Shown here piece by piece: positions 10,584 to 61,818 of a stretch of 64,000 nt of DNA. The translations under genes and the position numbers were made by a program. Position 1 is the stretch's first letter. Each line of letters begins with the position of its first letter. A model generated the notes under the pieces. It made no database searches and was not told where the DNA came from. It saw nothing but the letters and a program-made list of their open reading frames with translations. This stretch comes from a virus, in IMG/VR virus record IMGVR_UViG_3300026097_001223, positions 118,330-182,329 of that record. One strand, given 5' to 3'.

Positions 10584-10827
10584 TAACTTTTATCGTGATG
10601 CTAAGTTGGTATTAGTTTGGAGCACTATTGTTACTGTGATTGCTTTATTGTTTTCATTAATTGGACAGTATGCATATGCTTCAGAAAACGATTTAGGCTA
10701 CACTCGGCAGATAAAGTGTGAGCAATCACAAGATGGCAGACAGGTCCAGTGCTGGTTAGTAGAAGTTCCTAATCAGCCAGTGCCTGGCATTGACATTTCA
10801 ACGGGGGCGGAGCGTGAAAAAAATTAA
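10567..10827 (+). CDS. hypothetical membrane-anchored protein
   Basis: GAGG RBS; one TM segment. Confidence 0.55.
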   Translation: MTKESDNFYRDAKLVLVWSTIVTVIALLFSLIGQYAYASENDLGYTRQIKCEQSQDGRQVQCWLVEVPNQPVPGIDISTGAEREKN

Positions 10828-15165: not shown

Positions 15166-16191
15166 ATGACAGTGAAAATTTCAAACAATATATGGCCGAT
15201 AGCAGCGGTTATTCTGCTTGCGTCGTCTTCGGGATGGGCATTGGAAGATGCCGACGGTGAAGCAGACAGCAGCAGTCTTGTGGTCACAGAAAGTACCACA
15301 ACGACCAACAGTACCGTTAACAGTACAAACACCAATACCAACACCAATAATAATACGGTGAATAGTACTAGCACCAGTACTAATACCAATAACAATGTGT
15401 TGAGTGGTGGTACTAACAATACCAACACAAACATCAACACCAATAATAATATACTAAGTGGTGGTACTGACAACAAAAACACCAATATCAACACCAATAC
15501 CAACAACAGTACTATTAATCAAACAACCAACAATACCAGTAACAGCACGATTAATAATACAACCAACTCAACCATTGATCAGACAACCGACAGCACTATC
15601 AATCAAACCACTGACAGCACTATCGATCAAACTGTTGATCAAACTGTTAACAGCACTAACACAAACACAAACACAAACAACAATACCAATGTTAACACTA
15701 GCACCAGCAATAACACCAACACCAACAATAACAACAACAAGAGCGATGTGACACAAACCATCAAGTCACCGCCGCCCAGTGCCATTGCTCCTACTGTGAA
15801 TGCAGGCGGTAATGATACTTGTACTGTGAGTTACAGTGCCGCAGTGCAGAGTCAGGTACTGGGCATTGCAGGTGGCGGCCATGTTCGTGATCTAAACTGT
15901 GAACGCCTAAAGAATTCTAAACAGTTATACAACATGGGCATGAAGGTTGCGGCTGTGAGTTTGATGTGCCAGGATCCAAAGGTATTTACAGCAATGGAAA
16001 TGGCTGGAACACCTTGTCCGTTCAACGGCAAGATCGGTGAAGAAGCCAAAGAAATGTGGGCAAAGTATCCAGAACTGAAGCCTACAGAACAGGAAGAGGA
16101 AACCAGACGCAATGACACACTCAAGGGCATTGGCTGGGGCATACTCGGCAGTGCTCTGCTCATGTATGCTACTGGTGGCGCCGCTTTCTAA
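15166..16191 (+). CDS. exported Asn/Thr-rich repeat protein with Cys-containing C-terminal domain and TM anchor
   Basis: GGGGAG RBS before ATG 15166; signal peptide; N/T low-complexity tract; PPPSAIAP...C...RDLNCERLK...MCQD...AGTPCP; C-terminal TM. Confidence 0.8.
   Translation: MTVKISNNIWPIAAVILLASSSGWALEDADGEADSSSLVVTESTTTTNSTVNSTNTNTNTNNNTVNSTSTSTNTNNNVLSGGTNNTNTNINTNNNILSGGTDNKNTNINTNTNNSTINQTTNNTSNSTINNTTNSTIDQTTDSTINQTTDSTIDQTVDQTVNSTNTNTNTNNNTNVNTSTSNNTNTNNNNNKSDVTQTIKSPPPSAIAPTVNAGGNDTCTVSYSAAVQSQVLGIAGGGHVRDLNCERLKNSKQLYNMGMKVAAVSLMCQDPKVFTAMEMAGTPCPFNGKIGEEAKEMWAKYPELKPTEQEEETRRNDTLKGIGWGILGSALLMYATGGAAF
15295..15740 (+). repeat. degenerate tandem repeats encoding N/T-rich units (NNN(V/I)LSGGT x2; (I)DQTTDST 8-aa units x3-4)
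   Basis: Visible AACACC/AATACC microsatellite-like codon repeats and 24-nt units GACAGCACTATC(A/G)ATCAAAC. Confidence 0.8.
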
Positions 16192-18160
16192 AGCGGGTCC
16201 TCACGACAACCACACATTCCAAGCACCTGACCACAACGAAATAAAAGATTGGTGGGTAGGCCAGGGCGGCAGCATTGACAGTTATCTTTATTCAGAAAAC
16301 TCAACCACAGGATCGGACGGCGTGTTAGGCAATGAACACATCTGCATAAGAGACGATGTCAACAAAGTGTATGTGGGTCGTTCAGATGTCTGCGTTAATA
16401 GGTCAATGGACTCAACCTATAGTTATATACAGATCGACGAGATAGACTGGGCCACACAGGAATACATTGTGGGACAGACAGGTGACTTGATAGGCGACAC
16501 TTCTCAGTATTGGGATGGTTGTTATACAGTCAATCAAGGATGGGGTGGAACTTCAGGCGGATCATGTCCTACTATTAATGATCAATACGTTGGTGCGGCG
16601 GATGGACAGATTAACTTTGGTTATGTAGAACGCACACTAACAAACCTCGCCGCAATAAACATCGCACTGGAGCAGGCTGGTATTGAAGCAACAGGCTACA
16701 ACTATTCGTGGAGCATAAAGAACAACGATGCTGAATACAAAGACAGTGGTAATGGCAGAAACACACCAGATACGTTCTATGTGGAAGTGGTTATTCGTGA
16801 CACACAAGGAAATGCAGTGTTTTCTAAAACCTATGACTACAGTCAATATTACAGTAGTTGGACACCTGTTACAGGAGAGGAAACATTTGCCGATCCTTTT
16901 GATGTAAGCACACTGGAATCTATTCAACTGAATGTCACAGGTAAGGATTTGGGATACTGGGCAGGATACTATGGTCCAGAGTTCAAGGATCCTTCGATAA
17001 AACTTAACTACAGATACGCAGGCAATCCTGTGGCAGAAGAAAGCCTAGAGGATACGGTATTGCTGTCAGCACAGTGTTCAGCAGATCCTACATTCTCCCC
17101 AGAATGCCCAGGCTACAATGACGCATTTATGGCTAACATAAACACAGGAGCACCTACAATAGACGATGTCACAACTGGGATGCTAGATCCTATAACAGAC
17201 ACTGCTTCAACGGGAGGATTTTCTAATGACCCAATGGATACAACAAATAATGGATTGGTGGGAATGGCATCGTCTTCGCCAGCACCAGGATCAAATGTGC
17301 AAGAAACACAAGCCGCAACCTCAGATACAGCAACAGAATCAGTTGCAGAATCAACAGGCGAAACCAGCACAGGAGCAGGAAGATCACTGAATGCCAATGA
17401 ACTGAACGCACTCAGTGCCGCTGAAGATGTAGCCAGTGCCGCAACCAGCATAGCCGCAGAGAGTAGCACACAGAGTCTTACAAGCAGTAACACCGGCACT
17501 AGCACAGGGGCTCCTGGCACCACAGGCGGCTTTGACACCAACGGTGTTGCGGGTGCTTCTAACTTTGGTGGCGGCTTTGGCGGTAGCAGTTTTGGTTCAG
17601 ACAGCACCAACTCAGGAATGGATTCTAACATGGGCAACACAGGAATGGACAGCAACTCAGGCGATTCTGCTAGCATGGATCTTGCCATGGGCGGGTCAGT
17701 GCAAACTGAAGATATCACAGGTGAATCTGCACTGAGCGCATCAGAGCAGTTGACTCAAGGTGCTGACATGGCAGACATAGAACTGGCCAGTTTGGATTTG
17801 GATTTGATACGAGACATTGTGAACAGTGTTGCAGAACGCACACTACAAGATATCAAAGACGAACAAGAAGACAGTATGGAAGAAGCCAATGAGGCCAGCA
17901 TTGCACAAGCCAACGCAGAAGAAGATAGACTGGCACAGGCTGCAATGGCAGGCAGCACAGATGAATCAGCACTGGTAGCACTGTTGGGATATAATCCCGA
18001 CTTTAGAGCATATCAACAACCGCAAATGGCAGACGGTGATTTATACCCGCCAAAGGATATATACACGGACAAGAAAAACTATGACAATCCTGCAGCTCGA
18101 TTTTTCAATGGAGCCAGCGATGCAAAACACAAGTCGATGGTAAGGAGCCAATACAGATAA
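16112..18160 (+). CDS. large acidic exported hypothetical protein with Ser/Thr/Gly-rich linker (start uncertain)
   Basis: Long ORF overlapping the previous stop; possible signal peptide; globular N-half with Cys; low-complexity middle; C-terminal ALLGYNPDF...SD.KH..MV.SQY. Confidence 0.75.
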   Translation: MTHSRALAGAYSAVLCSCMLLVAPLSKAGPHDNHTFQAPDHNEIKDWWVGQGGSIDSYLYSENSTTGSDGVLGNEHICIRDDVNKVYVGRSDVCVNRSMDSTYSYIQIDEIDWATQEYIVGQTGDLIGDTSQYWDGCYTVNQGWGGTSGGSCPTINDQYVGAADGQINFGYVERTLTNLAAINIALEQAGIEATGYNYSWSIKNNDAEYKDSGNGRNTPDTFYVEVVIRDTQGNAVFSKTYDYSQYYSSWTPVTGEETFADPFDVSTLESIQLNVTGKDLGYWAGYYGPEFKDPSIKLNYRYAGNPVAEESLEDTVLLSAQCSADPTFSPECPGYNDAFMANINTGAPTIDDVTTGMLDPITDTASTGGFSNDPMDTTNNGLVGMASSSPAPGSNVQETQAATSDTATESVAESTGETSTGAGRSLNANELNALSAAEDVASAATSIAAESSTQSLTSSNTGTSTGAPGTTGGFDTNGVAGASNFGGGFGGSSFGSDSTNSGMDSNMGNTGMDSNSGDSASMDLAMGGSVQTEDITGESALSASEQLTQGADMADIELASLDLDLIRDIVNSVAERTLQDIKDEQEDSMEEANEASIAQANAEEDRLAQAAMAGSTDESALVALLGYNPDFRAYQQPQMADGDLYPPKDIYTDKKNYDNPAARFFNGASDAKHKSMVRSQYR

Positions 18161-18364: not shown

Positions 18365-18742
18365 ATGGCAGAAGAAACAATCAAACCTACAACACCTGTA
18401 GAAAATGCAACCGTAACAGTGGACAAAGATGCCATTGATGGTGCAGATCTCAACGGAGACGGACACGTTTCTAAAGAAGAGATGGATATGCATTTAGAAT
18501 TTAAACGCAAAGAACTCGAAGACAAAGACGCACAGCGTGACGCAATTCGCAAGATGGCCTGGTTTTCACTGTTTGGTCTTCTGCTGTACCCAATTGGTAT
18601 TTTCCTTACCTCAGCGTTTGGCTTAGACACAGCAGCACAACTAATTGCTGACATTGCTCCAACTTATTTTGCTTCAATTGCAGTGTTGGTTTCTGCATTC
18701 TTTGGAGCTGATGCATTCGCTAACAAAGGCAAGAAACAATGA
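18365..18742 (+). CDS. EF-hand-containing small membrane protein (holin-like topology)
   Basis: Canonical loop DLNGDGHVSKEE followed by 2 TM helices and a basic C-terminus; GAGGAG RBS. Confidence 0.65.
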   Translation: MAEETIKPTTPVENATVTVDKDAIDGADLNGDGHVSKEEMDMHLEFKRKELEDKDAQRDAIRKMAWFSLFGLLLYPIGIFLTSAFGLDTAAQLIADIAPTYFASIAVLVSAFFGADAFANKGKKQ

Positions 18743-19203
18743 CACAAAATGAATATGACGTCGTTGTGATTAATGTGGTCGATGGCGACACTGTGGACGT
18801 GGACATTGATTTGGGCTTTGGTATTACACTAAGAGACGAACGAGTACGTATCATGGGCATTGACACAGAAGAAAGCCGCACGTCAGACAAGGTAGAAGAC
18901 TTGTTTGGCGAAACTGCTAAGGCTCGTGTGAAAGAACTTATGAAGTCTGGCGCCAAGCTCATTACCACTGAAGACAAGGGTGGTGAAGATATGAAAGGCA
19001 AGTTTGGTCGCATCCTGGGAGACTTCCGTCTACCAAGCGGCAAGACACTTACCGAAACTCTCATTGAGGAACATCTTGCCGTTCCCTATCACGGACAGAG
19101 CAAGGATGATATCCGAGCACAACACCTTGCCAACAGAGAGCAACTGCTCAATGAAGGTGTTGTTAGTAAAGAAGAATATGAAAAAAGGTTAAAAGATGAC
19201 TGA
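18739..19203 (+). CDS. thermonuclease (SNase-like)
   Basis: VVDGDT, RVRIMGIDTEE, GKFGRILG. Confidence 0.85.
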   Translation: MTQNEYDVVVINVVDGDTVDVDIDLGFGITLRDERVRIMGIDTEESRTSDKVEDLFGETAKARVKELMKSGAKLITTEDKGGEDMKGKFGRILGDFRLPSGKTLTETLIEEHLAVPYHGQSKDDIRAQHLANREQLLNEGVVSKEEYEKRLKDD

Positions 19204-19933
19204 TCATATCAAACACTGCCATTTAATGGCCCGGTGCGCCGGAACGGCTTATCTTGATGGTGCAGACGCCAAGGCAAAATTCAAAGAGTTAGGATTCACT
19301 GGACACAAGTTTTTTGACAAAGATGGTGCACAGTGTCATGCAGTTTGGAACACTGACATGTATGTGTTGTGTTTTAGAGGAACAGAACCAGATGAACTCA
19401 GTGACATTAAAGCTGATCTCAATGCTTGGCCAGATCGCGGCGAAAGCGGCGGGTTGGTTCACAACGGCTTTCAGAATGAAGTTGACAAGCTGTGGAGCGA
19501 TATAGAAAAGCATGTTGAAAAAAACTGCAAAGACAAACTGTTTTACATCTGTGGTCACAGCCTAGGTGGTGCAATGGCTAGTGTAGCCGGCAGCAGATAC
19601 AAAGATTCTGTGCACTGTGTATACACCTACGGTTCTCCTCGAGTTGGCAACGGCGCCTGGGTACGCAGCTGGAAAGATGTTCCACACTATAGACACAAAA
19701 ACAACAATGACATTGTAACCAGTGTGCCGTTTTGGTTCATGGGCTATAGACATCACGGGTCGTTGCGCTACATCAACTTTTACGGTAATGTCCGCAAGTT
19801 GACACCCTGGCAAAAGATCAAAGACAGCTGGAGAGGACGCTGGGCAGCATTGTGCACAGGTTCACCGTTTGACGGAGTAGCTGATCACGACATTGGTGCT
19901 TACATTGAATTTACAGGACGAAACAATGATTGA
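19196..19933 (+). CDS. lipase class 3 family
   Basis: CFRGTE, VHNGF, GHSLGG nucleophile elbow, TYGSPRVG, NNDIV..VP, DHDI. Confidence 0.9.
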   Translation: MTDHIKHCHLMARCAGTAYLDGADAKAKFKELGFTGHKFFDKDGAQCHAVWNTDMYVLCFRGTEPDELSDIKADLNAWPDRGESGGLVHNGFQNEVDKLWSDIEKHVEKNCKDKLFYICGHSLGGAMASVAGSRYKDSVHCVYTYGSPRVGNGAWVRSWKDVPHYRHKNNNDIVTSVPFWFMGYRHHGSLRYINFYGNVRKLTPWQKIKDSWRGRWAALCTGSPFDGVADHDIGAYIEFTGRNND

Positions 19934-20195
19934 CCGACTATTTGATGATACACTGTGGATATATACAGCAATACTTGGCTCAGTGTTTGGTGCAGCATTT
20001 CTTGCATACTTTAAAGACACAAGAGCAGGGCTATGGTGCTACGCCAAGCTGGATGAAACGCTGGATTTTCTTGTTGAGCGCTGGGGCTGGACTTGGTTTG
20101 AACAACCCGTGGATGCATGGCGTAAAAAGTATCCATATGTTACCAAAAAAATTGACGAATTAGAAAAACGCATAGAGGAGCTAGAACAAAAATGA
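19926..20195 (+). CDS. hypothetical membrane protein with C-terminal coiled coil
   Basis: One TM; KKIDELEKRIEELE. Confidence 0.65.
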   Translation: MIDRLFDDTLWIYTAILGSVFGAAFLAYFKDTRAGLWCYAKLDETLDFLVERWGWTWFEQPVDAWRKKYPYVTKKIDELEKRIEELEQK

Positions 20196-20353
20196 GTTGG
20201 ATTAAAGACAGACTATTTGAAAGAACAACCTGGGACGGCGCTGTTCTCATTGGTGCAGGACTGGCATTTTTGCTGTTCAAGCCAATTGCAAGTCTAGTAG
20301 CATATGGTGCAATAGCATATGGTGCTTGGACTTTATACACTAAAGAAAAATAA
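20192..20353 (+). CDS. 53-aa two-TM membrane protein (not in the ORF track)
   Basis: MSWIKDRLFERTTWDGAVLIGAGLAFLLFKPIASLVAYGAIAYGAWTLYTKEK; ATGA overlap with the upstream stop. Confidence 0.65.
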   Translation: MSWIKDRLFERTTWDGAVLIGAGLAFLLFKPIASLVAYGAIAYGAWTLYTKEK

Positions 20354-20368
20354 CAAAGGAATGGAAGA

Positions 20369-20989
20369 ATGGCTGACAAAGATCTAGGCGAAAGCATCGA
20401 AAACTTCGAGAACGAAGTAGAAAATCTAAAAAATACAAAGATGAAGATTTTTGGCATATCAATGACCCCAACCAATATAGGTGCGGCCTTGGCCCTGGTG
20501 TCAGCTATTCTTGGCACACTGTATGGCGCATTTGAAAGTTACAAAGCATTTCAAGAAATGAGCGAAAAGCTAGAAAAAATGGACATTGAAGCAGTAGAAG
20601 CTCGCAATGTTGCTATTGAAACCAAACTAGCTGATGCTATTGACTACACTCGCGACATTAAGAACGGACTGCGGGACGACATACTGCGAATCGAACAACA
20701 GGTCAACAGAATGGAAGACAAGGTAGAGGACAGCGAAGACCGTGTTAAAGACAGCCAAGACGCTATTGAAACACATCTAGAAACCATTCGTGACGAAATG
20801 AACGACGTAAGAAAGGATGTGGCACAGAGCACCCGTGAGATTGAAGGTCTAATGCGCGAAACTGAAAAAGACGTTCGTGATACCATGCGTAGCACAGAAG
20901 ACAGAATTGATTCAGACATGCGTCAACTTGACAAGGATCTTAACGAAAAGTTGCAGGAGGCATTAGACAACCCTCTTAACGATATGTAA
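20369..20989 (+). CDS. membrane-anchored coiled-coil protein
   Basis: AAGGA RBS; single TM, then a long heptad-rich region. Confidence 0.75.
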   Translation: MADKDLGESIENFENEVENLKNTKMKIFGISMTPTNIGAALALVSAILGTLYGAFESYKAFQEMSEKLEKMDIEAVEARNVAIETKLADAIDYTRDIKNGLRDDILRIEQQVNRMEDKVEDSEDRVKDSQDAIETHLETIRDEMNDVRKDVAQSTREIEGLMRETEKDVRDTMRSTEDRIDSDMRQLDKDLNEKLQEALDNPLNDM

Positions 20990-21050
20990 TCGAAAAAATA
21001 TTTGAGTGCACAAGAGCAACCTAAGTTGCCGCGCACAGGAGCTAGAAAAA

Positions 21051-21488
21051 ATGATCGCTGAATTAGCAGCCGCTAATGCCGCGTTTGATGTTATCAAGCA
21101 AAGCATTCAGAACGGCAAAGAAATCTACGAGGCTGGCGAAGCAGTTGCGGAATACTTCGGACTAAAAAACGAAATACAAAAACGAGCACACGAACACGGA
21201 TACAAAAGTGATCTTCAAGCGTTCATGGCCGCTGAACAACTCAAGAAACAAGAAGATGAATTGAAGAACATGATGATCTATCAAGGCCGCGGCGGCATGT
21301 GGAACGACTGGCTAAAGTTTCAATCAGACATGAAAAAATCTCGCGACGAAGAAGCTAGACAAAAGAAATTGGCAAAAGCCAAACGCAAGAAAGTGTTGAT
21401 AAATGTTTTAATTATCGCCAGTGCAGTAGTTGGAACTGGTGCACTTGTTGCTGCAGGAATTTATTTGTTAATTGCCTTAGCAAAATAA
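21051..21488 (+). CDS. hypothetical protein with C-terminal TM
   Basis: AGGAG RBS before ATG 21051; coiled coil, basic stretch, TM. Confidence 0.7.
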   Translation: MIAELAAANAAFDVIKQSIQNGKEIYEAGEAVAEYFGLKNEIQKRAHEHGYKSDLQAFMAAEQLKKQEDELKNMMIYQGRGGMWNDWLKFQSDMKKSRDEEARQKKLAKAKRKKVLINVLIIASAVVGTGALVAAGIYLLIALAK

Positions 21489-21497
21489 TTATGTGTT

Positions 21498-22229
21498 ATG
21501 GATAAGTTTAAAATTTATGATAATGATAAAAATCTCGGCAGACCATACAAAACAAAATGGGCTGGGATGGACAATGAAGATTTGTTCAATCATAATAAAA
21601 AACTTATGGAAAAAACAAGTCCGCATTGGATATATTTTACTAAAGATGTCTCTTACATAAGAAACAGCAACGGATTTAGAGAAAAATCATTTTCAGACGT
21701 TGACTGGGTAAACAGTATTGTGCTGTTTGGATGCTCGACTGTCGAAGGAGTAGGCGTAGCTGAAGAAGACAGTCTGCCCCGACAATTAGAATCGTTAATG
21801 AATATTCCAGTTGTAAACATGGGCATAGGAGGAGCAGCTGTAGATATAACATGCTGGAACTCTACAATTTTACATGATCACTACCCTATTCCTCGAGCTA
21901 TTGTGCATGTCTGGACTGGACTAGATAGATACAGCGACCTAACGGATGCCGGCACTTACAAAAAATCAAATCCAACCAGTAACGATTATCAAATTGTCCT
22001 AAATTGGGCACATAGGTCATTGGAATACATTAGGTCTGACAGAGCCATGTGGAAAAACAAAACTTTTTATATTGAAGGAACCTACTTTCGCGGAAACTAC
22101 GACGATCGGATAATGAAATTTAAAACAATTGATCTAGCCAGAGACTTATCGCATCCTGGTATACAAAGTCACAAACAAGCAGCCGCGAAAATAAAAGAAA
22201 GATTGTTAGAACAAGGGTTTCGCAAGTGA
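21498..22229 (+). CDS. SGNH-like phage protein
   Basis: NSNGFR, LFGCSTVEGVG, NMGIGGA, ARDLSHPG. Confidence 0.55.
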   Translation: MDKFKIYDNDKNLGRPYKTKWAGMDNEDLFNHNKKLMEKTSPHWIYFTKDVSYIRNSNGFREKSFSDVDWVNSIVLFGCSTVEGVGVAEEDSLPRQLESLMNIPVVNMGIGGAAVDITCWNSTILHDHYPIPRAIVHVWTGLDRYSDLTDAGTYKKSNPTSNDYQIVLNWAHRSLEYIRSDRAMWKNKTFYIEGTYFRGNYDDRIMKFKTIDLARDLSHPGIQSHKQAAAKIKERLLEQGFRK

Positions 22230-22278
22230 ATGGTTTATATATTGTTCTAGTACATTTATTATTTTTACAACATAAAGG

Positions 22279-22307
22279 TTGCAATACCAGTATAACTAGC
22301 ATATAAT
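22279..22307 (+). promoter_or_regulatory. sigma70-type promoter
   Basis: TTGCAA, 17 nt spacer, TATAAT. Confidence 0.75.
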
Positions 22308-22312
22308 ACTAG

Positions 22313-22398
22313 TATGCTGTAAAAAGCATATCCGCTGCTCAATTCCCACTGAGCACCGTCAAGAAGGTTGACTCCCAATCAACCTTCTTGCTTTGCTT
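22313..22398 (+). ncRNA. candidate small RNA or structured 5' leader with three hairpins
   Basis: TATGCT/AGCATA; TGCTCA-ATTCCCAC-TGAGCA; CAAGAAGGTTGA-CTCCCAA-TCAACCTTCTTG plus a T-rich tail. Begins about 6 nt after the -10 box. Confidence 0.55.
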
Positions 22399-22411
22399 AC
22401 TTGGAGATAAT

Positions 22412-22735
22412 ATGGATCTATTTTTACAATTTTTGACAACCATGGCCATAATGTATGCATTCATGCGTGTAGGACATTCGCTATCCAGTATACCACAAGA
22501 AGATTTAGAGCCAGTGGACGAAGATAATTTTGTAATTCTAGGTTACATTACACGGGAACAGGATGTCTTTTATGTGTGGAATTATGCCACAGATGAATTT
22601 CTTGGACAAGGCCGAACAAAGCATGAGCTCGAAGGTCATTTGCGAAGCAATTTGGATGAGTTGTATCAGCAGCTAAACATTGTAGACAAAGACAACGGAA
22701 TCACTCTGCAGGCATATCGTGAGCTTAACCAATAA
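22412..22735 (+). CDS. hypothetical protein with N-terminal TM
   Basis: GGAG RBS before ATG 22412. Confidence 0.65.
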   Translation: MDLFLQFLTTMAIMYAFMRVGHSLSSIPQEDLEPVDEDNFVILGYITREQDVFYVWNYATDEFLGQGRTKHELEGHLRSNLDELYQQLNIVDKDNGITLQAYRELNQ

Positions 22736-22919
22736 TATCATTACACTACCTCAAGAGAAAACATTAATAGAATGGTTTCACTGGCTGAGCAATCATGGAT
22801 TTTATATCAAAGAACACTACGGATGGGTAAGTACAGACACAGGACTTGGTGTCCAGTTTTTCAAAGAAAGTCATGCTAACAGTGTTAGAAGTTTAATGGT
22901 TCTTAAACGCAATACGTAA
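22719..22919 (+). CDS. hypothetical protein
   Basis: GTG start overlapping the upstream gene. Confidence 0.5.
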   Translation: MSLTNNIITLPQEKTLIEWFHWLSNHGFYIKEHYGWVSTDTGLGVQFFKESHANSVRSLMVLKRNT

Positions 22920-22936
22920 CTCTATCGGAGAGATAA

Positions 22937-23221
22937 ATGAGTGTTAAAAATTTAGCCAACGAAGCAGAACGCATGCTTGCAAATCTTTCTCTGAGAGATA
23001 AGTACAACCTATTTGAAATTGTGTTGCAACAGCTCGGAAAACGACAATCACCCGAGAAACAAGCAGAACTTAATGCGGTGTATCGGGCAATAGTGCAAGA
23101 TCGAGACACTGACAAGACCACGCTTAGGCAAAAAGAACGTGGGTATCAGAACAGTATCAGTGATGACATACGTGGCGGTGATTTGACTGGCAATGCTCGG
23201 AAAAACAGGAAAAAGGCATGA
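22937..23221 (+). CDS. hypothetical protein
   Basis: GGAG RBS. Confidence 0.65.
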   Translation: MSVKNLANEAERMLANLSLRDKYNLFEIVLQQLGKRQSPEKQAELNAVYRAIVQDRDTDKTTLRQKERGYQNSISDDIRGGDLTGNARKNRKKA

Positions 23222-23922
23222 AAGCACGAATTAGAAAGTACCCAACTTGGTTTGGTCCACATCACTTAGTTGAAAAGATCTTCTTCTGGGCAGAAAGCTG
23301 GGATGAATACGGATTGCCAGATCGTCCACAGTGGGTCCACAATGCCGGATCGTGGTATGCGGATACCTGGCTGGGTAGAGGACATTCTTGGTTGGCTGAA
23401 CGGTATATGGCGTGGCAGGAAGGTCGTCGTGTGAGTGTAAAACTTGATTCCTGGGATACTTGGAATGCCGACGACACACTGGCACATATTGTGTTGCCTA
23501 TGCTGGTTGATCTTAAACTGACCAAGCAAGGTGCTCCTAATGTTGATCCGGAAGATGTTCCAGAGAATCTTCGACCAGGCAAACTTGAAGTAGAACAGTA
23601 CAAGATGGATGGCACCGCAGATGCACTGTTCTTTAAGCGTTGGGATTATGTCCTAGACGAAATGATTTGGGCGTTCTCAGAACATGTCAAAGATTACGAC
23701 GAAGCAGAAGGACGGTTCCACACAGGCACAATTGACATGTTAAGTGTGCCCGTTGACGAAGCGGGCAATGAAGTTGCCGAGAAAGATGCCAAATACTTCC
23801 GCATGGATCGTGGACCCAACGACACCAGCCATTTTGACAAAGCAGGCTGGGAAGTGTATCATAATCGCAAGCAGAACGGATTCAGACTTTTTGGCAAATA
23901 CTACACCTGTCTGTGGAGTTAA
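23218..23922 (+). CDS. Trp-rich phage hypothetical protein
   Basis: WDTWNADDTLAHIVLPML...WDYVLDEMIWAF...GFRLFGKYY..LW pattern. Confidence 0.75.
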   Translation: MKARIRKYPTWFGPHHLVEKIFFWAESWDEYGLPDRPQWVHNAGSWYADTWLGRGHSWLAERYMAWQEGRRVSVKLDSWDTWNADDTLAHIVLPMLVDLKLTKQGAPNVDPEDVPENLRPGKLEVEQYKMDGTADALFFKRWDYVLDEMIWAFSEHVKDYDEAEGRFHTGTIDMLSVPVDEAGNEVAEKDAKYFRMDRGPNDTSHFDKAGWEVYHNRKQNGFRLFGKYYTCLWS

Positions 23923-26346: not shown

Positions 26347-27435
26347 ATGAGCAATTACCCAACAGTAAACAGTCACAATAGCTGGAGTCGGTTGGAAGAA
26401 GTGATGCTGGGCGATGTGTATCCAGACTCTTGGTACAGTCACTTGCCAGACGAAATCGAAGACACGTTCTGTCGACTCAGTGAGATAACTCGTGCAGATC
26501 TCGCAATAATTGAAAACAAATTGCAAGAATTTGGTGTTCAAGTGCGTAGGCCAAACTATGAAAAAATTGAGAATCATCTTGCGCCAGACACTGAAACTCT
26601 TAAAAAGCCTGACATTACGCCCAGAGACTACTGCGTGGTAATCGGCAATCAGTTAGTAATTGGTAACCCTAGAACGTTCGAAATACCGGAATCGCCGTGG
26701 CATTACCTTTATCAAGAATACGGCCTCAGTTGTGTTAACAGTCATGACTTGGAACGCAGCGTAAGCGGCAAAGAAATGATCAACTGGCACCGCGGGTTTA
26801 ACGGAGCCAATGTTGTTAGATACGGAGACACTATTCTCTGGGATAATCCTTCGTTGCCCGATGATAAAAAAGCACAAGCAACGACGGATCTACAAACATT
26901 GTTTCCTGACTACAAGTTCCACATTGTGGACAATGGCGGCCATATAGATGGCTGTTTTCACACTGTGCGCCCGGGACTGCTATTAACTTCTCACTATTTC
27001 GACGATTACGAAACATATTTTCCAGGTTGGGAGTGCATTGCAATTCACGGCGAGCCAGAATTTGCTCGACACAACAACAACGGGAAAATAGACACTAGGC
27101 AAGTATATGGAAATGGACGCTGGTGGCTTAAAGGTGTTGACATGCCAATGTCCTTTAATAAACACATTGTGCAGTTTGCGCATGACTGGGTAGGTGAACC
27201 ACAAGAAACATACTTTGAAGTAAATGCATTGGTTGTTGATGAGAAAAATATTCTTATTTTAGGTGAAAACGATGCAGTATTTAGACGCTTTGAAGAATTA
27301 GGAATCACTGCACACAGTGTGCCATTTAGAGCAAGAACATTTTGGGATGGCGGACTTCACTGTCTGACAGTGGATGTGCGCAGACAAAGCAAGATAGAAA
27401 ACGTTTTTGAGATTGACACAAGCCAGTATCTCTAG
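26347..27435 (+). CDS. amidinotransferase (glycine/inosamine-phosphate amidinotransferase family)
   Basis: VNSHNSWSRLEEVMLG, TPRD, GGHIDG, FWDGGLHCLT.D..R (Asp/His/Cys triad). Confidence 0.85.
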   Translation: MSNYPTVNSHNSWSRLEEVMLGDVYPDSWYSHLPDEIEDTFCRLSEITRADLAIIENKLQEFGVQVRRPNYEKIENHLAPDTETLKKPDITPRDYCVVIGNQLVIGNPRTFEIPESPWHYLYQEYGLSCVNSHDLERSVSGKEMINWHRGFNGANVVRYGDTILWDNPSLPDDKKAQATTDLQTLFPDYKFHIVDNGGHIDGCFHTVRPGLLLTSHYFDDYETYFPGWECIAIHGEPEFARHNNNGKIDTRQVYGNGRWWLKGVDMPMSFNKHIVQFAHDWVGEPQETYFEVNALVVDEKNILILGENDAVFRRFEELGITAHSVPFRARTFWDGGLHCLTVDVRRQSKIENVFEIDTSQYL

Positions 27436-27460
27436 TAGTATTAAAGCTTGGGGGTAACCA

Positions 27461-27829
27461 ATGAACAATATAGATCTAAGCAACATGACATTCGATCTTG
27501 ATCACAGTGATTTTGCTACGGTGACTGTTCCTGACGACACTATTGATCTTGGCATGTTTGATGCCGACAGCTTAACAATCAGTCTCAGCGACGATTGGCT
27601 ATCTTCAAGCAATGTGCAAAGACTAACTGGCCCGGACGCTGATTTAGAAATCAATGGCAAGAGTGTGTTACAAACTCTTGAACGACTGGAGCAAAGACTG
27701 GCAATCATTGAAGAAAATCCAGAGCTAGAAGATGACTGGCAGGAATTAAAGTCTCTAGGCGATCAGTATCGTGCTCTTGAAGCAGAAATCAACAACAAAC
27801 TCAAAACTTACAATACCTTAAAGGACTAG
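27461..27829 (+). CDS. phage hypothetical protein
   Basis: LEINGKSV...LERLEQRLAI...PELE..W.ELK.LGDQYR.LE. Confidence 0.7.
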   Translation: MNNIDLSNMTFDLDHSDFATVTVPDDTIDLGMFDADSLTISLSDDWLSSSNVQRLTGPDADLEINGKSVLQTLERLEQRLAIIEENPELEDDWQELKSLGDQYRALEAEINNKLKTYNTLKD

Positions 27830-40642: not shown

Positions 40643-41279
40643 GATGGTAGTTCACTCTGCTTCGAACGTGGTTCTTGGTAAAAAGTTTGCCACGGTAATA
40701 AACTTCGTCGGGACTGTGACTTCGGCTTAATGCAACCTGCCAGATATGTTTTGCATGTTCAGGAAAATTCATACCTAACACATTTTGTAGAATTTGCCAG
40801 CCATTGTCGTTGAGCATGTCAGCTAATGTTACTGTACTTGCACCCGATATTGTAACGCCGTTGTTACCGTGTAAAGAAACTTCGCATTCATGCTCAATTT
40901 TTTTACACATTTCTTGCACAGTTAACTTTTCTGCCGAATTAAACATAAATGATTTTACAATATGTTCCCAGGCTCTTTTAACACATTGCTCGATGTCTGT
41001 GTGGTCATGTAAAATGTAAATAGCTTTATCGTAGTCGTCAAGCATATCCTCACGTCGTGACAGCACCCACTGAAATTCAGAAATTCTTTTTAGTCCCGAG
41101 TGTTCCTTGTACACCTGATATTTCCCTGGATAATTTCCAGGATTTTTATTTTGTATAGTCCTGCCTGTGTACGAATCAATGTTCCAAGATTGCTGGACAT
41201 CTGGATTTAACATTCTTATGAGATATTGTTGAACAAAATCTGTGCGTACTCCGCCAGGACCGGAAACCAGTATATTCAT
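40605..41279 (-). CDS. hypothetical protein, distantly sulfotransferase/P-loop-like
   Basis: ILVSGPGGVRTDFV; ATG 6 nt after a minus-strand TATAAATA. Confidence 0.55.
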   Translation of the reverse strand: MNILVSGPGGVRTDFVQQYLIRMLNPDVQQSWNIDSYTGRTIQNKNPGNYPGKYQVYKEHSGLKRISEFQWVLSRREDMLDDYDKAIYILHDHTDIEQCVKRAWEHIVKSFMFNSAEKLTVQEMCKKIEHECEVSLHGNNGVTISGASTVTLADMLNDNGWQILQNVLGMNFPEHAKHIWQVALSRSHSPDEVYYRGKLFTKNHVRSRVNYHHAKRQEFYQNKN

Positions 41280-41285
41280 AATGTC

Positions 41286-41302
41286 TATTTATAAACTAAA
41301 TA
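41286..41302. promoter_or_regulatory. back-to-back divergent late promoters
   Basis: Minus-strand TATAAATA (41293-41286) and plus-strand TAAATA (41297-41302) in a 28-nt intergenic gap. Confidence 0.65.
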
Positions 41303-41307
41303 GTTGT

Positions 41308-41847
41308 ATGAAAGAAGATATCTTCAAAGGCGACACTGATTATTGGCAGGTAGCCGAACTTATAAAAAATGTATACTTTAGCGAAGGAACGCTGGCTACG
41401 CTCATGGATTATGAACGTGTACTCGATCAGCTAGACATCTATGCTTTTCGTAATTGGGCACTAGGTGAACTGGTTGACGGTCCAGACATTTCGCGCTATA
41501 AGGTGAGTGCTACCTGGATGTATCCAATAAAAAACATGCCAGATCCTAGAGGCGCTGCTAGATTGTTGCCGTTTGATGCAGAAGTAAAATATAAAAAAAC
41601 CACAATCACTGTGCCTATCAAAGTCACAGATCCCAGTGACTTTCGCCCGGGAACACACAAGCCTAAATTGATAAAAAAACCTGTGTGGTTAGTAGAAATC
41701 ACACTGCCCAAGAGTCTCATGACCGACATACAAAAAGGCAGCATTGAGCTAGAAGACGAAATCATTGACCTCAGCGAAATTGAAGACAGTTACGCAGAGG
41801 ATCTCGATCAAGAACAGTACCAAGACACAGAAGAGACACAACTATGA
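41308..41847 (+). CDS. jumbo-phage late hypothetical protein
   Basis: L.DYERVLDQLDIYAF.NW..GELV.GP...RY.V..TWMYP...MPDPRGA.RL; ATG 5 nt after TAAATA. Confidence 0.7.
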   Translation: MKEDIFKGDTDYWQVAELIKNVYFSEGTLATLMDYERVLDQLDIYAFRNWALGELVDGPDISRYKVSATWMYPIKNMPDPRGAARLLPFDAEVKYKKTTITVPIKVTDPSDFRPGTHKPKLIKKPVWLVEITLPKSLMTDIQKGSIELEDEIIDLSEIEDSYAEDLDQEQYQDTEETQL

Positions 41848-59676: not shown

Positions 59677-61818
59677 ATGCGCTTGAATGAACTACCCGAA
59701 CACGACAATAACAAAGAAGACGCCAGCTCTGATCAACCTCCTAAGCCAGGAAGAGAAGAGCTGAGCCGTTTCTTCGAATCAGCAGATACCAACAGCCAAC
59801 TTGAAATGCGTATTGCACTCAAAATGCAAAACCGCGCACAGGTGCTTGACCTATTAGAAGCTGGTGGCTATATTCCAGTAAACAACAAAGAAGCACAAGA
59901 CCCACGTTTTAAAACTGCACTCACAGTGGATATCAAGCCAGGTGAAGTTCAGCGTCAAGCTAAGAAAATGGGCTTCACTACAGATCGTGCCGGTGTGCCA
60001 CCATTGTTACACAAATCAGCTGCAAAAAACACAAGTGCAAACAAGGCATACAACATTGGACTTGCAGAAGATGCAAATCGTAGTCCTCAGGTAACCCAGG
60101 CAGACTTAAATGCACTAGAACAGTATGCCGACAAACTGTTTGGTAAAGTTGGCATTGATGTTGAATTTACTCGTCATTTCTTGGATAGAGTAAACGACGA
60201 GCGCAACCTAAAACAGATTACCATAGCCGAACTAACAAGACTGTTTAAGCAGGAATACAAGCGTTGGGGCAAGCGTATTGCACAACTTGGTCCAGATGCA
60301 CAAGCTGTAATGAAAGACATGCGCACCGACGTTAACATGCCGTTTGTGTTGACATGGGACGCACAAAATCAAGAACTGGATCTAGTTGCTAAAACAGTTA
60401 TGCGTAAAAAAGATTTTAAAACCAGCAATCAAGAATTTGCCATTGAAGACGGGCCTCTTGCAACAATTCAAAGAGCTGTTGCTCCAAAAATAAAACGCAA
60501 GGCCTATGACTATGCCGCTAAAACACTGCATGATGTAATACAGCGTAAAAAAGCCACAGGACAAAAACTTGTCCACACATTGGAATATTACGCACAGCGT
60601 GTGGGCAACAGTATCAAAGGCATTGATTATAGAGCTTTAACTGACTACTATATCGAACAGTATGGGACACCCGAGAGCTATACCGACCTAGAGCGATCTG
60701 TACTAGAATCAGGATACAGTCTAGACGACCTCGATGAAAACTTTGCGAATGGGAAGAAAATAAATGAAAAACTAAAATATCAGTCAAGTCTATCTAAAAA
60801 AATATTCAACCCTAGCGGGTATATAGAAAATCAAGGTGATTCAATTTACGGGTTGTGGCTTCCTTTGTCAGATAGCATAGTGAATAAAATTATCCCTAAA
60901 CAAAGAGCAAGGGTCTTTCACGTTACCGGAGTAGGAAACATAAACAAGATGTTTAACCTACAAGGACAGAAAAAAAGCATAAGTGCTTTCACAAATATGG
61001 ATTCCTATTATTTAGATAAAGGAATTGTTAGCGGAGGCGGAGGAGGTGTAATCTTTGAATTAGATGCCAATGTGCTTGGTGCTTTTAATCAAGATGTTGA
61101 AAGTGCTCCAGACACCGGCGGAAGGCGATGGATAACCCTCGACGCACTGATAGAGTTTAGTGGTAAAAATCGCAACGATCTAAAACCAATGTACGGTGAG
61201 ATGGCCAAACTTATCCAAAGTTTGCTGGATAAACATGCTCCTGACATGGATTATACAGACGAATATGATGATTATGAACTTACTGTCGATAAATGGACAG
61301 AACTGGGACAAAAATTGACCGCCGACGGCGACGGTAAAAAAATATCTGTTTTAATCAAAGATTATATAGATGGTGTATATGCAATAATGATCAAACATGC
61401 CAAACCCATAGGGCAAGCATTACAATCGTCTCTGTCAGACTCTGAAGGTTTAGATACAGACTGGAACGAAATAGTTGTAAATGACATCAAAGTTTTGCAG
61501 ATGCATGTGTTAAAAGATAGCGTAGAAAATTTAGAAAAACTCAAAGAGTTGGAATCTAAAGGCATAAAAGTTCGTGTATGGAATTCACCACAAGAACTTT
61601 CCAACTATACGAAAAAAGTCGGAGCACAACAGAAATTAGGTGAAAACTTTGCTGATGGTAAAAAGAAAGGCAAAAGCAGACCGGGGCGTGTAAAACGTGC
61701 AGGTGCTAGTTGCAAAGGGTCAGTCACTGATCTCAGAGCCAAGGCCAAAAAGTATTCCGGCGAACGTGGTAAAATGTATCACTGGTGCGCTAATATGAAA
61801 TCTGGTAAAAAGAAATGA
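59677..61818 (+). CDS. modular late protein (putative head-internal polyprotein)
   Basis: ATG 4 nt after TAAATA; MRLNEL start; modules include VDVEFTRHFLDRVND.RN and a duplicated ENFA(N/D)GKK; C-terminal ASC.GSVT.LR...MYHWCANMK. Confidence 0.75.
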   Translation: MRLNELPEHDNNKEDASSDQPPKPGREELSRFFESADTNSQLEMRIALKMQNRAQVLDLLEAGGYIPVNNKEAQDPRFKTALTVDIKPGEVQRQAKKMGFTTDRAGVPPLLHKSAAKNTSANKAYNIGLAEDANRSPQVTQADLNALEQYADKLFGKVGIDVEFTRHFLDRVNDERNLKQITIAELTRLFKQEYKRWGKRIAQLGPDAQAVMKDMRTDVNMPFVLTWDAQNQELDLVAKTVMRKKDFKTSNQEFAIEDGPLATIQRAVAPKIKRKAYDYAAKTLHDVIQRKKATGQKLVHTLEYYAQRVGNSIKGIDYRALTDYYIEQYGTPESYTDLERSVLESGYSLDDLDENFANGKKINEKLKYQSSLSKKIFNPSGYIENQGDSIYGLWLPLSDSIVNKIIPKQRARVFHVTGVGNINKMFNLQGQKKSISAFTNMDSYYLDKGIVSGGGGGVIFELDANVLGAFNQDVESAPDTGGRRWITLDALIEFSGKNRNDLKPMYGEMAKLIQSLLDKHAPDMDYTDEYDDYELTVDKWTELGQKLTADGDGKKISVLIKDYIDGVYAIMIKHAKPIGQALQSSLSDSEGLDTDWNEIVVNDIKVLQMHVLKDSVENLEKLKELESKGIKVRVWNSPQELSNYTKKVGAQQKLGENFADGKKKGKSRPGRVKRAGASCKGSVTDLRAKAKKYSGERGKMYHWCANMKSGKKK

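Follow-up and report, generated by a model that had tools for sequence, protein, structure and literature searches.

A predicted early promoter, a three-hairpin RNA element, and the gene for a 107-aa protein lie one after another on the plus strand at 22253-22735 of the window, a term used here for the whole 64-kb stretch of DNA that was analyzed. The window comprises the final 64 kb of a 182-kb IMG/VR virus record with an estimated completeness of ~52% and a G+C content of 42%, in which nearly every gene is found on the plus strand. The record encodes a T4-type major capsid protein (Gp23; PF07068, 330 bits) and carries five tRNAs together with a permuted, alpha-type tmRNA; a search of the whole window against Rfam at the gathering cutoffs returned tRNAs and tmRNA only. 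Since this 182-kb record combines a T4-type capsid protein with tRNAs and a tmRNA, its source is an uncultured giant T4-like phage, of marine origin. The host of this T4-like phage is apparently Gram-negative, and the alpha-type tmRNA hints that it may be an alphaproteobacterium. A genome scan for the host using the TctA-like protein of the phage gave matches of ~30% identity only, mostly from Burkholderiales, and was uninformative. Genes for BtuB-type and Tct-type transporters are present in the same 64-kb window. The immediate surroundings of the RNA element are a run of small plus-strand genes to which no function could be assigned.

The promoter is preceded by an AT-rich stretch (22253-22278, plus strand) that ends in AAAGG, a family signature positioned just 5' of the -35 element. 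The sequence AAAGGTTG also precedes nine other intergenic promoters of the record, and homology with the one relative available for comparison, contig L040, restarts within this stretch at ~22253-22271. The promoter itself (22279-22307, plus strand) is of the early sigma-70 type, TTGCAA-17-TATAAT, with CTAG in the spacer. The -35 hexamer TTGCAA occupies 22279-22284 and is separated by 17 nt from the -10 hexamer TATAAT at 22302-22307, with a predicted start at A22314. Ten of the 12 consensus positions for sigma-70 are matched, a score that is not significant alone, as 18 such sites were found in 5 kb vs 10.8 expected. The credibility of the promoter comes from its family context and its conservation, not from the consensus score. 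The record contains a promoter family of the form (T-rich)-AAAGGTTGAC-N-CTAG-N-TATAMT in ~10 plus-strand copies, nearly all intergenic, in which a T-rich run and AAAGGTTGAC are followed by ~10 nt, CTAG, 2-4 nt, TATAMT, and often then AATAAT. The promoter described here (22274-22307; AAAGGTTGCAA...CTAGCATATAAT) conforms to this pattern. Family promoters were located at 10743, 11030, 28177, 61458, 62705, 65663, 109367, 115813, and 175961 of the full record (G000:C1) and at 2583 and 22274 of the window. Downstream of the nine other intergenic members there are either leaders of 13-25 nt with AGGAG-ATG behind them or tRNAs; the leader described here is ~98 nt long and strongly folded (z = -5.6). 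At the same place L040 has TTGTAA-17-TATACT, retaining the -35 element, the 17-nt spacer, and the -10 element despite many substitutions. Its membership in a promoter family of the phage and its retention in a relative make it very probable that the promoter is genuine.

The RNA that would be transcribed from A22314 consists of three consecutive hairpins. Hairpin 1 (HP1; 22313-22330, plus strand) has six base pairs and the loop GUAAAA, and it opens at the predicted +1. Hairpin 2 (HP2; 22333-22358, plus strand) has a 6-bp core with two outer pairs across a C.C mismatch, and its loop, AUUCCCAC, is located at 22342-22349. Hairpin 3 (HP3; 22360-22390, plus strand) is composed of 12 perfect Watson-Crick pairs closed by the loop CUCCCAA (22372-22378), with a folding energy of -15.5 kcal/mol. 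The stem of HP3 is followed by CUUUGCUUAC, of which the interrupted U-rich tail CUUUGCUUA (22391-22399, plus strand) is a probable 3' end or pause site and marks the end of a 69-nt run that is identical in L040. The Shine-Dalgarno (SD) sequence UUGGAG (22401-22406) of the downstream gene begins 10 nt past HP3 and precedes the ATG at 22412 (22401-22414 in all, plus strand). An earlier, sequence-only reading of this DNA had placed a TTGCAA-17-TATAAT promoter with a start at about 22313-22314 ahead of three back-to-back hairpins, the second and third with C-rich loops and the third on a perfect 12-bp stem, and both the promoter and the hairpins were recovered as described.

The predicted fold of the 88-nt RNA is exactly these three hairpins, with an energy of -31.5 kcal/mol. 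The fold is more stable than that of every one of 200 dinucleotide-shuffled sequences (0 of 200 as stable, z = -7.7), and HP3 is the longest perfect stem in the entire 182-kb record. Among the 368 plus-strand hairpins of at least 6 bp in the whole record, three carry a UCCCA loop, and two of these three are HP2 and HP3, for which 0.33 would be expected. The third is found at 41620-41643 of the window, AAAGUCAC-agauccca-GUGACUUU, inside the open reading frame at 41242-41847. The probability that loop 3 is unpaired was calculated to be 0.98, and that for loop 2 was 0.93 in the L040 context and 0.50 in the read-through context of the window. A mini-ORF at +1, AUG-CUG-UAA (GUG-CUG-UAA in L040), was considered and judged to be a by-product of the HP1 sequence.

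The relative L040 is the metagenome contig Ga0209953_1005136 (3,088 nt), which was found with a DNA pattern built on the two loops and is the sole sequence compared at the element. It aligns with 19000-20355 of the window at 80% identity, and the alignment restarts at 22271-23076 with 76% identity. L040 lacks the three genes at 20369-22229, and the right junction of the indel is at the promoter. These genes (window 20356-22252) encode proteins of 206 aa (coiled-coil-like), 160 aa, and 243 aa. On its left, the indel is joined just past the stop codon of a 53-aa gene and, on its right, at the AT-rich stretch 5' of the promoter; no promoter is present within the insert, the first SD of which comes directly after the upstream stop. 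The promoter, the RNA, and the downstream gene are thus kept as a unit in L040 while three upstream genes come or go.

The flanks of the element are 78% (left) and 76.5% (right) identical in L040. Positions 22331-22399 form a perfect run of 69 nt, and the next longest runs in the ~2.7-kb alignment are 49 and 26 nt. By our own arithmetic, the chance of a 69-nt run at 77% identity is ~1e-8 per start position. The 49-nt run (window 19174-19222) falls in the overlap of the open reading frames at 18739-19203 and 19196-19933, the latter class-3 lipase-like. Across 22313-22399 there are three substitutions, all of which are inside HP1; HP2 and HP3 are both 100% identical. The pair 22314-22329 is A-U in the window and G-C in L040, a compensatory change by which the +1 nucleotide stays a purine and stays paired, and the outermost pair of HP1 is lost in L040. 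The sequence-only reading had proposed that the loops should be conserved while the stems vary, and the comparison agrees with this, as the loops are invariant and the only stem that varies, HP1, does so by compensation. The loops, the linkers, and the tail are as constrained as the stems. As one relative was compared, this invariance is compatible with a seed function, with protein binding, or with another constraint. The conserved block extends from the predicted +1 to 9 nt past HP3 and is followed directly by a 3-nt insertion in L040, ahead of the conserved SD. Intrinsic terminators release their RNA ~9 nt past the stem, which is where the conserved block ends, and the selected unit thus coincides with the interval from the predicted +1 to a terminator-type 3' end. 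Since L040 keeps the RNA nearly letter for letter while the flanking genes differ by about a quarter, the three-hairpin RNA is real and functional, and the selection on it is unusually strong.

HP3 is a poor intrinsic terminator. Its d-score, the classical score for a hairpin and U-run terminator, was ~-36, whereas three clear terminators of the phage scored +13 to +24. The base of the HP3 stem is AU-rich (C-G, A-U, A-U). The T-rich tail reported in the sequence-only reading is present, but the run is interrupted (C-UUU-GC-UU) and much weaker than the T6-7 terminators of the phage. The promoter at 22279-22307 is the sole evident promoter for the downstream gene, and polymerase must therefore read through HP3 for that gene to be transcribed. 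Because HP3 scores poorly and read-through is needed, the release of a discrete ~80-nt transcript is not assured.

The downstream gene (22412-22735, plus strand) encodes a protein of 107 aa with a hydrophobic N-terminus and is inherited with the RNA as one module. The protein has no match in Pfam or among the PHROG families, and the ESM Atlas returned viral hypothetical proteins only; its homologues are P0007, P0008, and P0009. The protein encoded by L040 is identical to P0009 and 68% identical to the 107-aa protein of the window. A distant homologue of the 107-aa protein (36% identity) was found in another T4-like phage, at L042:2875-3201 (IMGVR_UViG_3300044675_001501), where it lacks such a leader RNA and lies after a gp44-type clamp-loader gene, with a RegA-like translational repressor two genes later. 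The family of small, membrane-anchored proteins to which it belongs is therefore widespread in T4-like phages and can sit in the replication block.

Wider searches for the region gave little. The closest relatives are carried by Logan and ENA contigs: P0001 and P0007 (98% and 93%), encoded together on a Logan contig of 1,789 nt, P0002 (84%), and P0008 (68%), on an ENA contig of 9.8 kb; P0009 is from a contig of 9.4 kb. In the cultured-phage database, the region had no match by megablast or blastn, and neither the 682-aa protein (16112-18160) nor the 107-aa protein had a match by tblastn. Single-protein scans of IMG/VR with either of the flanking genes returned no close relatives, and the 28 loci with a distant homologue of the upstream gene (identity no higher than 44%) differ in their neighbors and have no such intergenic region. 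A single-sequence covariance model (R1) detected no second copy in the 182-kb record and no copy in four related records (~80% amino acid identity in the neighboring gene at 23218-23922), from which the module is absent. The exact HP3 DNA pattern was not found in IMG/VR, and a looser two-loop pattern gave two matches there that are unstructured and due to chance. The two-loop pattern was absent from 185,579 bacterial species genomes, so there is no sign of a host-borne copy or a prophage.

Several known RNAs resemble the element in part. The 6S RNA of phage lambda (PR'-tR') and oop RNA each arise from a phage promoter with a terminator hairpin within ~80-200 nt and are small RNAs unless read-through occurs. 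Both terminate efficiently and have established partners, Q antitermination in the case of 6S and antisense pairing to cII in that of oop, whereas the element described here has no evident partner and no evident efficient terminator. The AbcR (alpha-r15) RNAs repress ABC-transporter mRNAs of their Rhizobiales hosts. AbcR1 and AbcR2 (PMC5461406, PMC4152367) have two C-rich seeds, M1 (CUCCCA), which lies in a hairpin loop, and M2 (GUUCCC), which lies in a single-stranded linker (PMC5461406). These two seeds had been quoted correctly in the sequence-only reading, and M1 occurs exactly and unpaired in loop 3, while loop 2 contains AUUCCC, which matches M2 at five of six positions. In contrast to AbcR, the M2-like motif is inside loop 2 and not in the linker that joins hairpins 1 and 2, the two motifs come in the opposite order, and the element is phage-borne, with nothing to tie its host to Rhizobiales. 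The proposed link to AbcR and cuckoo RNAs did not hold up as homology, for a cmscan of 22100-22600 at E ≤ 10 returned noise only (mir-5697, CRISPR-DR65, HYMAI, and mir-1255) and no Rfam family matched. An AbcR (alpha-r15) homologue was ruled out on this ground; a cuckoo (alpha-r14) RNA was ruled out by the same result and because the loops are AUUCCCAC and CUCCCAA, not CCUCCUCCC. As no Rfam family matches, mimicry of AbcR could only be convergent, and the likeness is taken as convergent at most.

A closer parallel in design is provided by the UCCC-motif sRNAs of Firmicutes (RNAIII and RsaE of Staphylococcus aureus and LhrC of Listeria), which have a 5' hairpin, unpaired UCCC motifs in their most conserved parts, and a 3' hairpin, and for which the terminator loop of LhrC is a working seed (PMC2790875, PMC4132741). 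They are short RNAs with several UCCC motifs in loops that target G-rich SD regions. The loops of the phage element are likewise C-rich and may have such regions as pairing partners; both contain UCCC and are invariant in L040. The UCCC-motif sRNAs, however, come from the chromosomes of Gram-positive bacteria, and their transcripts have been mapped and end in classical terminators, whereas the predicted RNA described here is encoded by a T4-like phage, has a weak U tract, shares no sequence homology with them, and lies 10 nt from the SD of the next gene. The element constitutes a new RNA family of a known general kind, either a regulatory RNA with C-rich loops or a structured leader.

Candidate targets of the loops were sought among the 232 translation starts in the sequenced part of the phage (~52% of the genome), and no significant target was found. 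The best phage starts had pairing energies of -11.8 and -12.4 kcal/mol, values that are equaled by 12 and 11%, respectively, of shuffled seeds. Both UGGGAG and GUGGGAA are a far better fit to the loops than is the UUGGAG of the adjacent gene; UGGGAG occurs in 0 of the 232 phage starts, and the SD type of the phage is AAGGAG. With loop 3, the adjacent UUGGAG requires a bulge and pairs at -5.6 kcal/mol, ranking 64th of 232.

At 27413-27463 of the window, an early-type promoter (TTGACA-17-TAGTAT) with a 13-nt leader precedes the unusual SD UUGGGGGU, which matches loop 3 better than any other phage start does (8 bp, -11.8 kcal/mol) but is not significant against shuffled seeds. Two phage starts carry AGUGGGAA, the 8-nt complement of loop 2. 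One of these is the start of a radical-SAM gene (G000:C1:94995-95040; L045:496-541), where AGUGGGAA is found at about -18 and where, across the ATG, 16 of 18 positions match the complement of the 3' arm and tail of HP3. As a target, this start is a weak, post hoc candidate that is probably due to chance, and its two blocks are not colinear for a single duplex.

The small RNA and the structured leader or attenuator readings of the element are about as likely as each other. Our tentative preference, held with somewhat less than even confidence, is for a reading that joins the two, in which a leader-derived structured RNA of ~86 nt (22314 to ~22399) has a dual output, a trans-acting sRNA and a read-through mRNA. 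The RNA would form the 5' end of a transcript that is initiated at an early promoter of the host sigma-70 type and also carries the 107-aa membrane-protein gene. HP1, the structure of which is attested by the compensatory change, begins at the first transcribed base and may shield the 5' end from 5'-end-dependent decay. HP3 and its interrupted U tail would stop a fraction of the transcripts, cause them to pause, or mark them for processing, giving rise to a short and stable RNA, and the read-through transcripts would express the downstream gene. The two exposed UCCCA loops would be the working parts, and their constraint in sequence is shown by their invariance amid ~23% divergence of the flanks. 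By analogy with the UCCC-loop sRNAs and AbcR, they would most likely pair with UGGGA/GGAG ribosome-binding regions of other mRNAs and block their translation. Such targets may be host mRNAs or mRNAs encoded in the half of the phage genome that has not been sequenced. The dual-output leader is favored because the transcript-like boundaries of the conserved block, the two adjacent UCCCA loops, and the resemblance to the design of UCCC-motif sRNAs are set against the points that speak for a leader acting in cis.

The chief competitor is a purely cis-acting 5' leader of the 107-aa gene, a doubtful but quite possible explanation in which HP1 stabilizes the mRNA and HP3 attenuates or pauses transcription without any trans function, while the invariant loops and linkers, either as protein-binding sites or through pairing inside the mRNA such as that of a loop with the SD, set the output of the membrane protein. 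A promoter, a structured RNA, an SD 10 nt farther on, and a co-oriented gene with no other evident promoter make up the usual layout of a leader and not that of an independent sRNA gene; a terminator as weak as HP3 should let most transcripts through, and the RNA and the gene are co-inherited. The SD is predicted to be mostly paired in the read-through RNA (P(unpaired) of 0.12-0.24), and in the minimum free energy fold of the window the UUCC of loop 2 pairs with it. Against this, the SD-pairing partners differ between the folds of the window and L040, and a 3-nt indel separates the conserved block from the SD. Pairing of loop 3 with the SD of its own gene is limited to 4 bp, or to 6 bp if one C is bulged, and the resulting pseudoknot, with a net energy gain estimated by hand to be ~0, is not favored. 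Structure alone would not require 69 invariant bases, ~30 of them unpaired, and the distant homologue of the gene in L042 does without such a leader. The least probable reading by our estimate, and one that can hardly be credited, is an ordinary terminator of the upstream operon combined with a chance match to a promoter. Sigma-70-like matches are indeed common by chance, and HP3 was picked up in a terminator scan, but the upstream genes of L040 differ and the element is nevertheless kept with the downstream gene, the promoter fits a family and is retained in L040, and a plain terminator, for which HP3 scores poorly, needs neither three hairpins nor invariant loops.

Also quite improbable is antitermination of the nut, put, or EAR type, in which the RNA modifies polymerase, as is a role of the element in the processing of a long early operon downstream. 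In its favor, the hairpins begin at the +1 of a unit that runs through many co-oriented genes, HP1 (UGCU-GUAAAA-AGCA) is loosely like the boxB of lambdoid phages, and UGCUCAAU is loosely like boxA. The boxA-like bases, however, are buried in the HP2 stem and lack a U-rich core, so that the nut-like reading was rejected, and there was neither an Rfam match nor an identifiable N-, Q-, or LoaP-like factor. Elements of the nut, put, or EAR type are not known to be used by T4-like phages. It is improbable, though to a lesser degree, that the element acts at the level of DNA, as a mobile cassette like those termed PeSL or as a protein operator, kept for recombination or DNA binding. PeSLs are stem-loop terminators located just upstream of an early promoter with a short leader, in cassettes that are repeated in the genome and are known at indels such as the three-gene indel described here, with its right junction at the promoter (PMC4122927). 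The phage shares with the PeSL cassettes of T4-like phages (PMC2839356, PMC4122927) a family of strong sigma-70-like early promoters, a variable region of small genes, and an indel junction at the promoter; its Gp23 marks it as T4-like, the relative L031 has the same promoter type before a different small ORF, and the stems are all Watson-Crick and so contain no G-U pairs that would mark the RNA strand. PeSL stem-loops, however, lie upstream of their promoter with many copies per genome, whereas the hairpins here are 3' of the -10 element within the ~98-nt leader, are single-copy in the record and its four relatives as judged with model R1, and are far better conserved than the promoter, which is nearest the junction and the most diverged part. 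The compensatory change in HP1 preserves pairing and not sequence, and the loops are invariant, although an operator palindrome would let them vary. A canonical PeSL was therefore rejected, and the promoter-anchored indel is still PeSL-like.

The dual-output reading can be extended to a fuller proposal that, taken as a whole, we consider unlikely. The element would be an early sRNA of a virulent giant T4-like marine phage, with two UCCCA loops that have converged on bacterial anti-SD seeds (AbcR M1 and the UCCC-motif sRNAs). It would shut off host mRNAs with UGGGA/GGGAG starts, such as those of uptake systems, while the phage brings its own transporters, and its release from the 5' end of an mRNA would let one promoter supply both a regulator and a protein. 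Few base-pairing sRNAs are known from virulent phages, and none has been established for T4-like phages of marine bacteria. The element is clearly delimited, and the selection on it is stronger than that on the surrounding proteins. If the trans-acting reading is true, this would be a case of phage convergence on C-rich anti-SD seeds for the take-over of the host; if the cis-acting reading is true, it would be a leader that controls translation or transcription in a sequence-specific manner, within an early region that is hypervariable. Promoter-anchored, PeSL-like shuffling of genes is in addition documented here for an uncultured lineage of giant phages.

Other promoters showed arrangements of their own. 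Two family copies, at 61458 and 115813, share a nearly identical stretch of ~60 nt that takes in the leader, an arrangement suggestive of cassette duplication, and at 10697-10776 of the record a strong terminator hairpin lies 5' of the promoter, in the canonical PeSL order. In the relative L031 (IMGVR_UViG_3300026097_000039), the same promoter type, up to TATAATACTAG..GTATG, drives a different small ORF; at L031:1953-2000, TTGACA-17-TATAAT is followed by 8 nt (ACTAGAGT) and then the ATG of an 81-aa ORF, the mRNA of which would have little or no leader. In its -10 element and the context of its start site, this promoter matches the one in the window. Outside the window, ~106 kb upstream at G000:C1:12411-12479, a second promoter directly precedes a hairpin. 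There, TTGATA-17-TATAAT is followed 9 nt after the -10 element by the hairpin CCCUCUCUG-cuaauua-CAGAGAGGG, then UUUUUU, and then ATG. This hairpin has a folding energy of -14.9 and a d-score of +24, with the SD-like AGAGAGGG buried opposite a C-rich arm, and it may terminate transcription, mask the SD, or do both.
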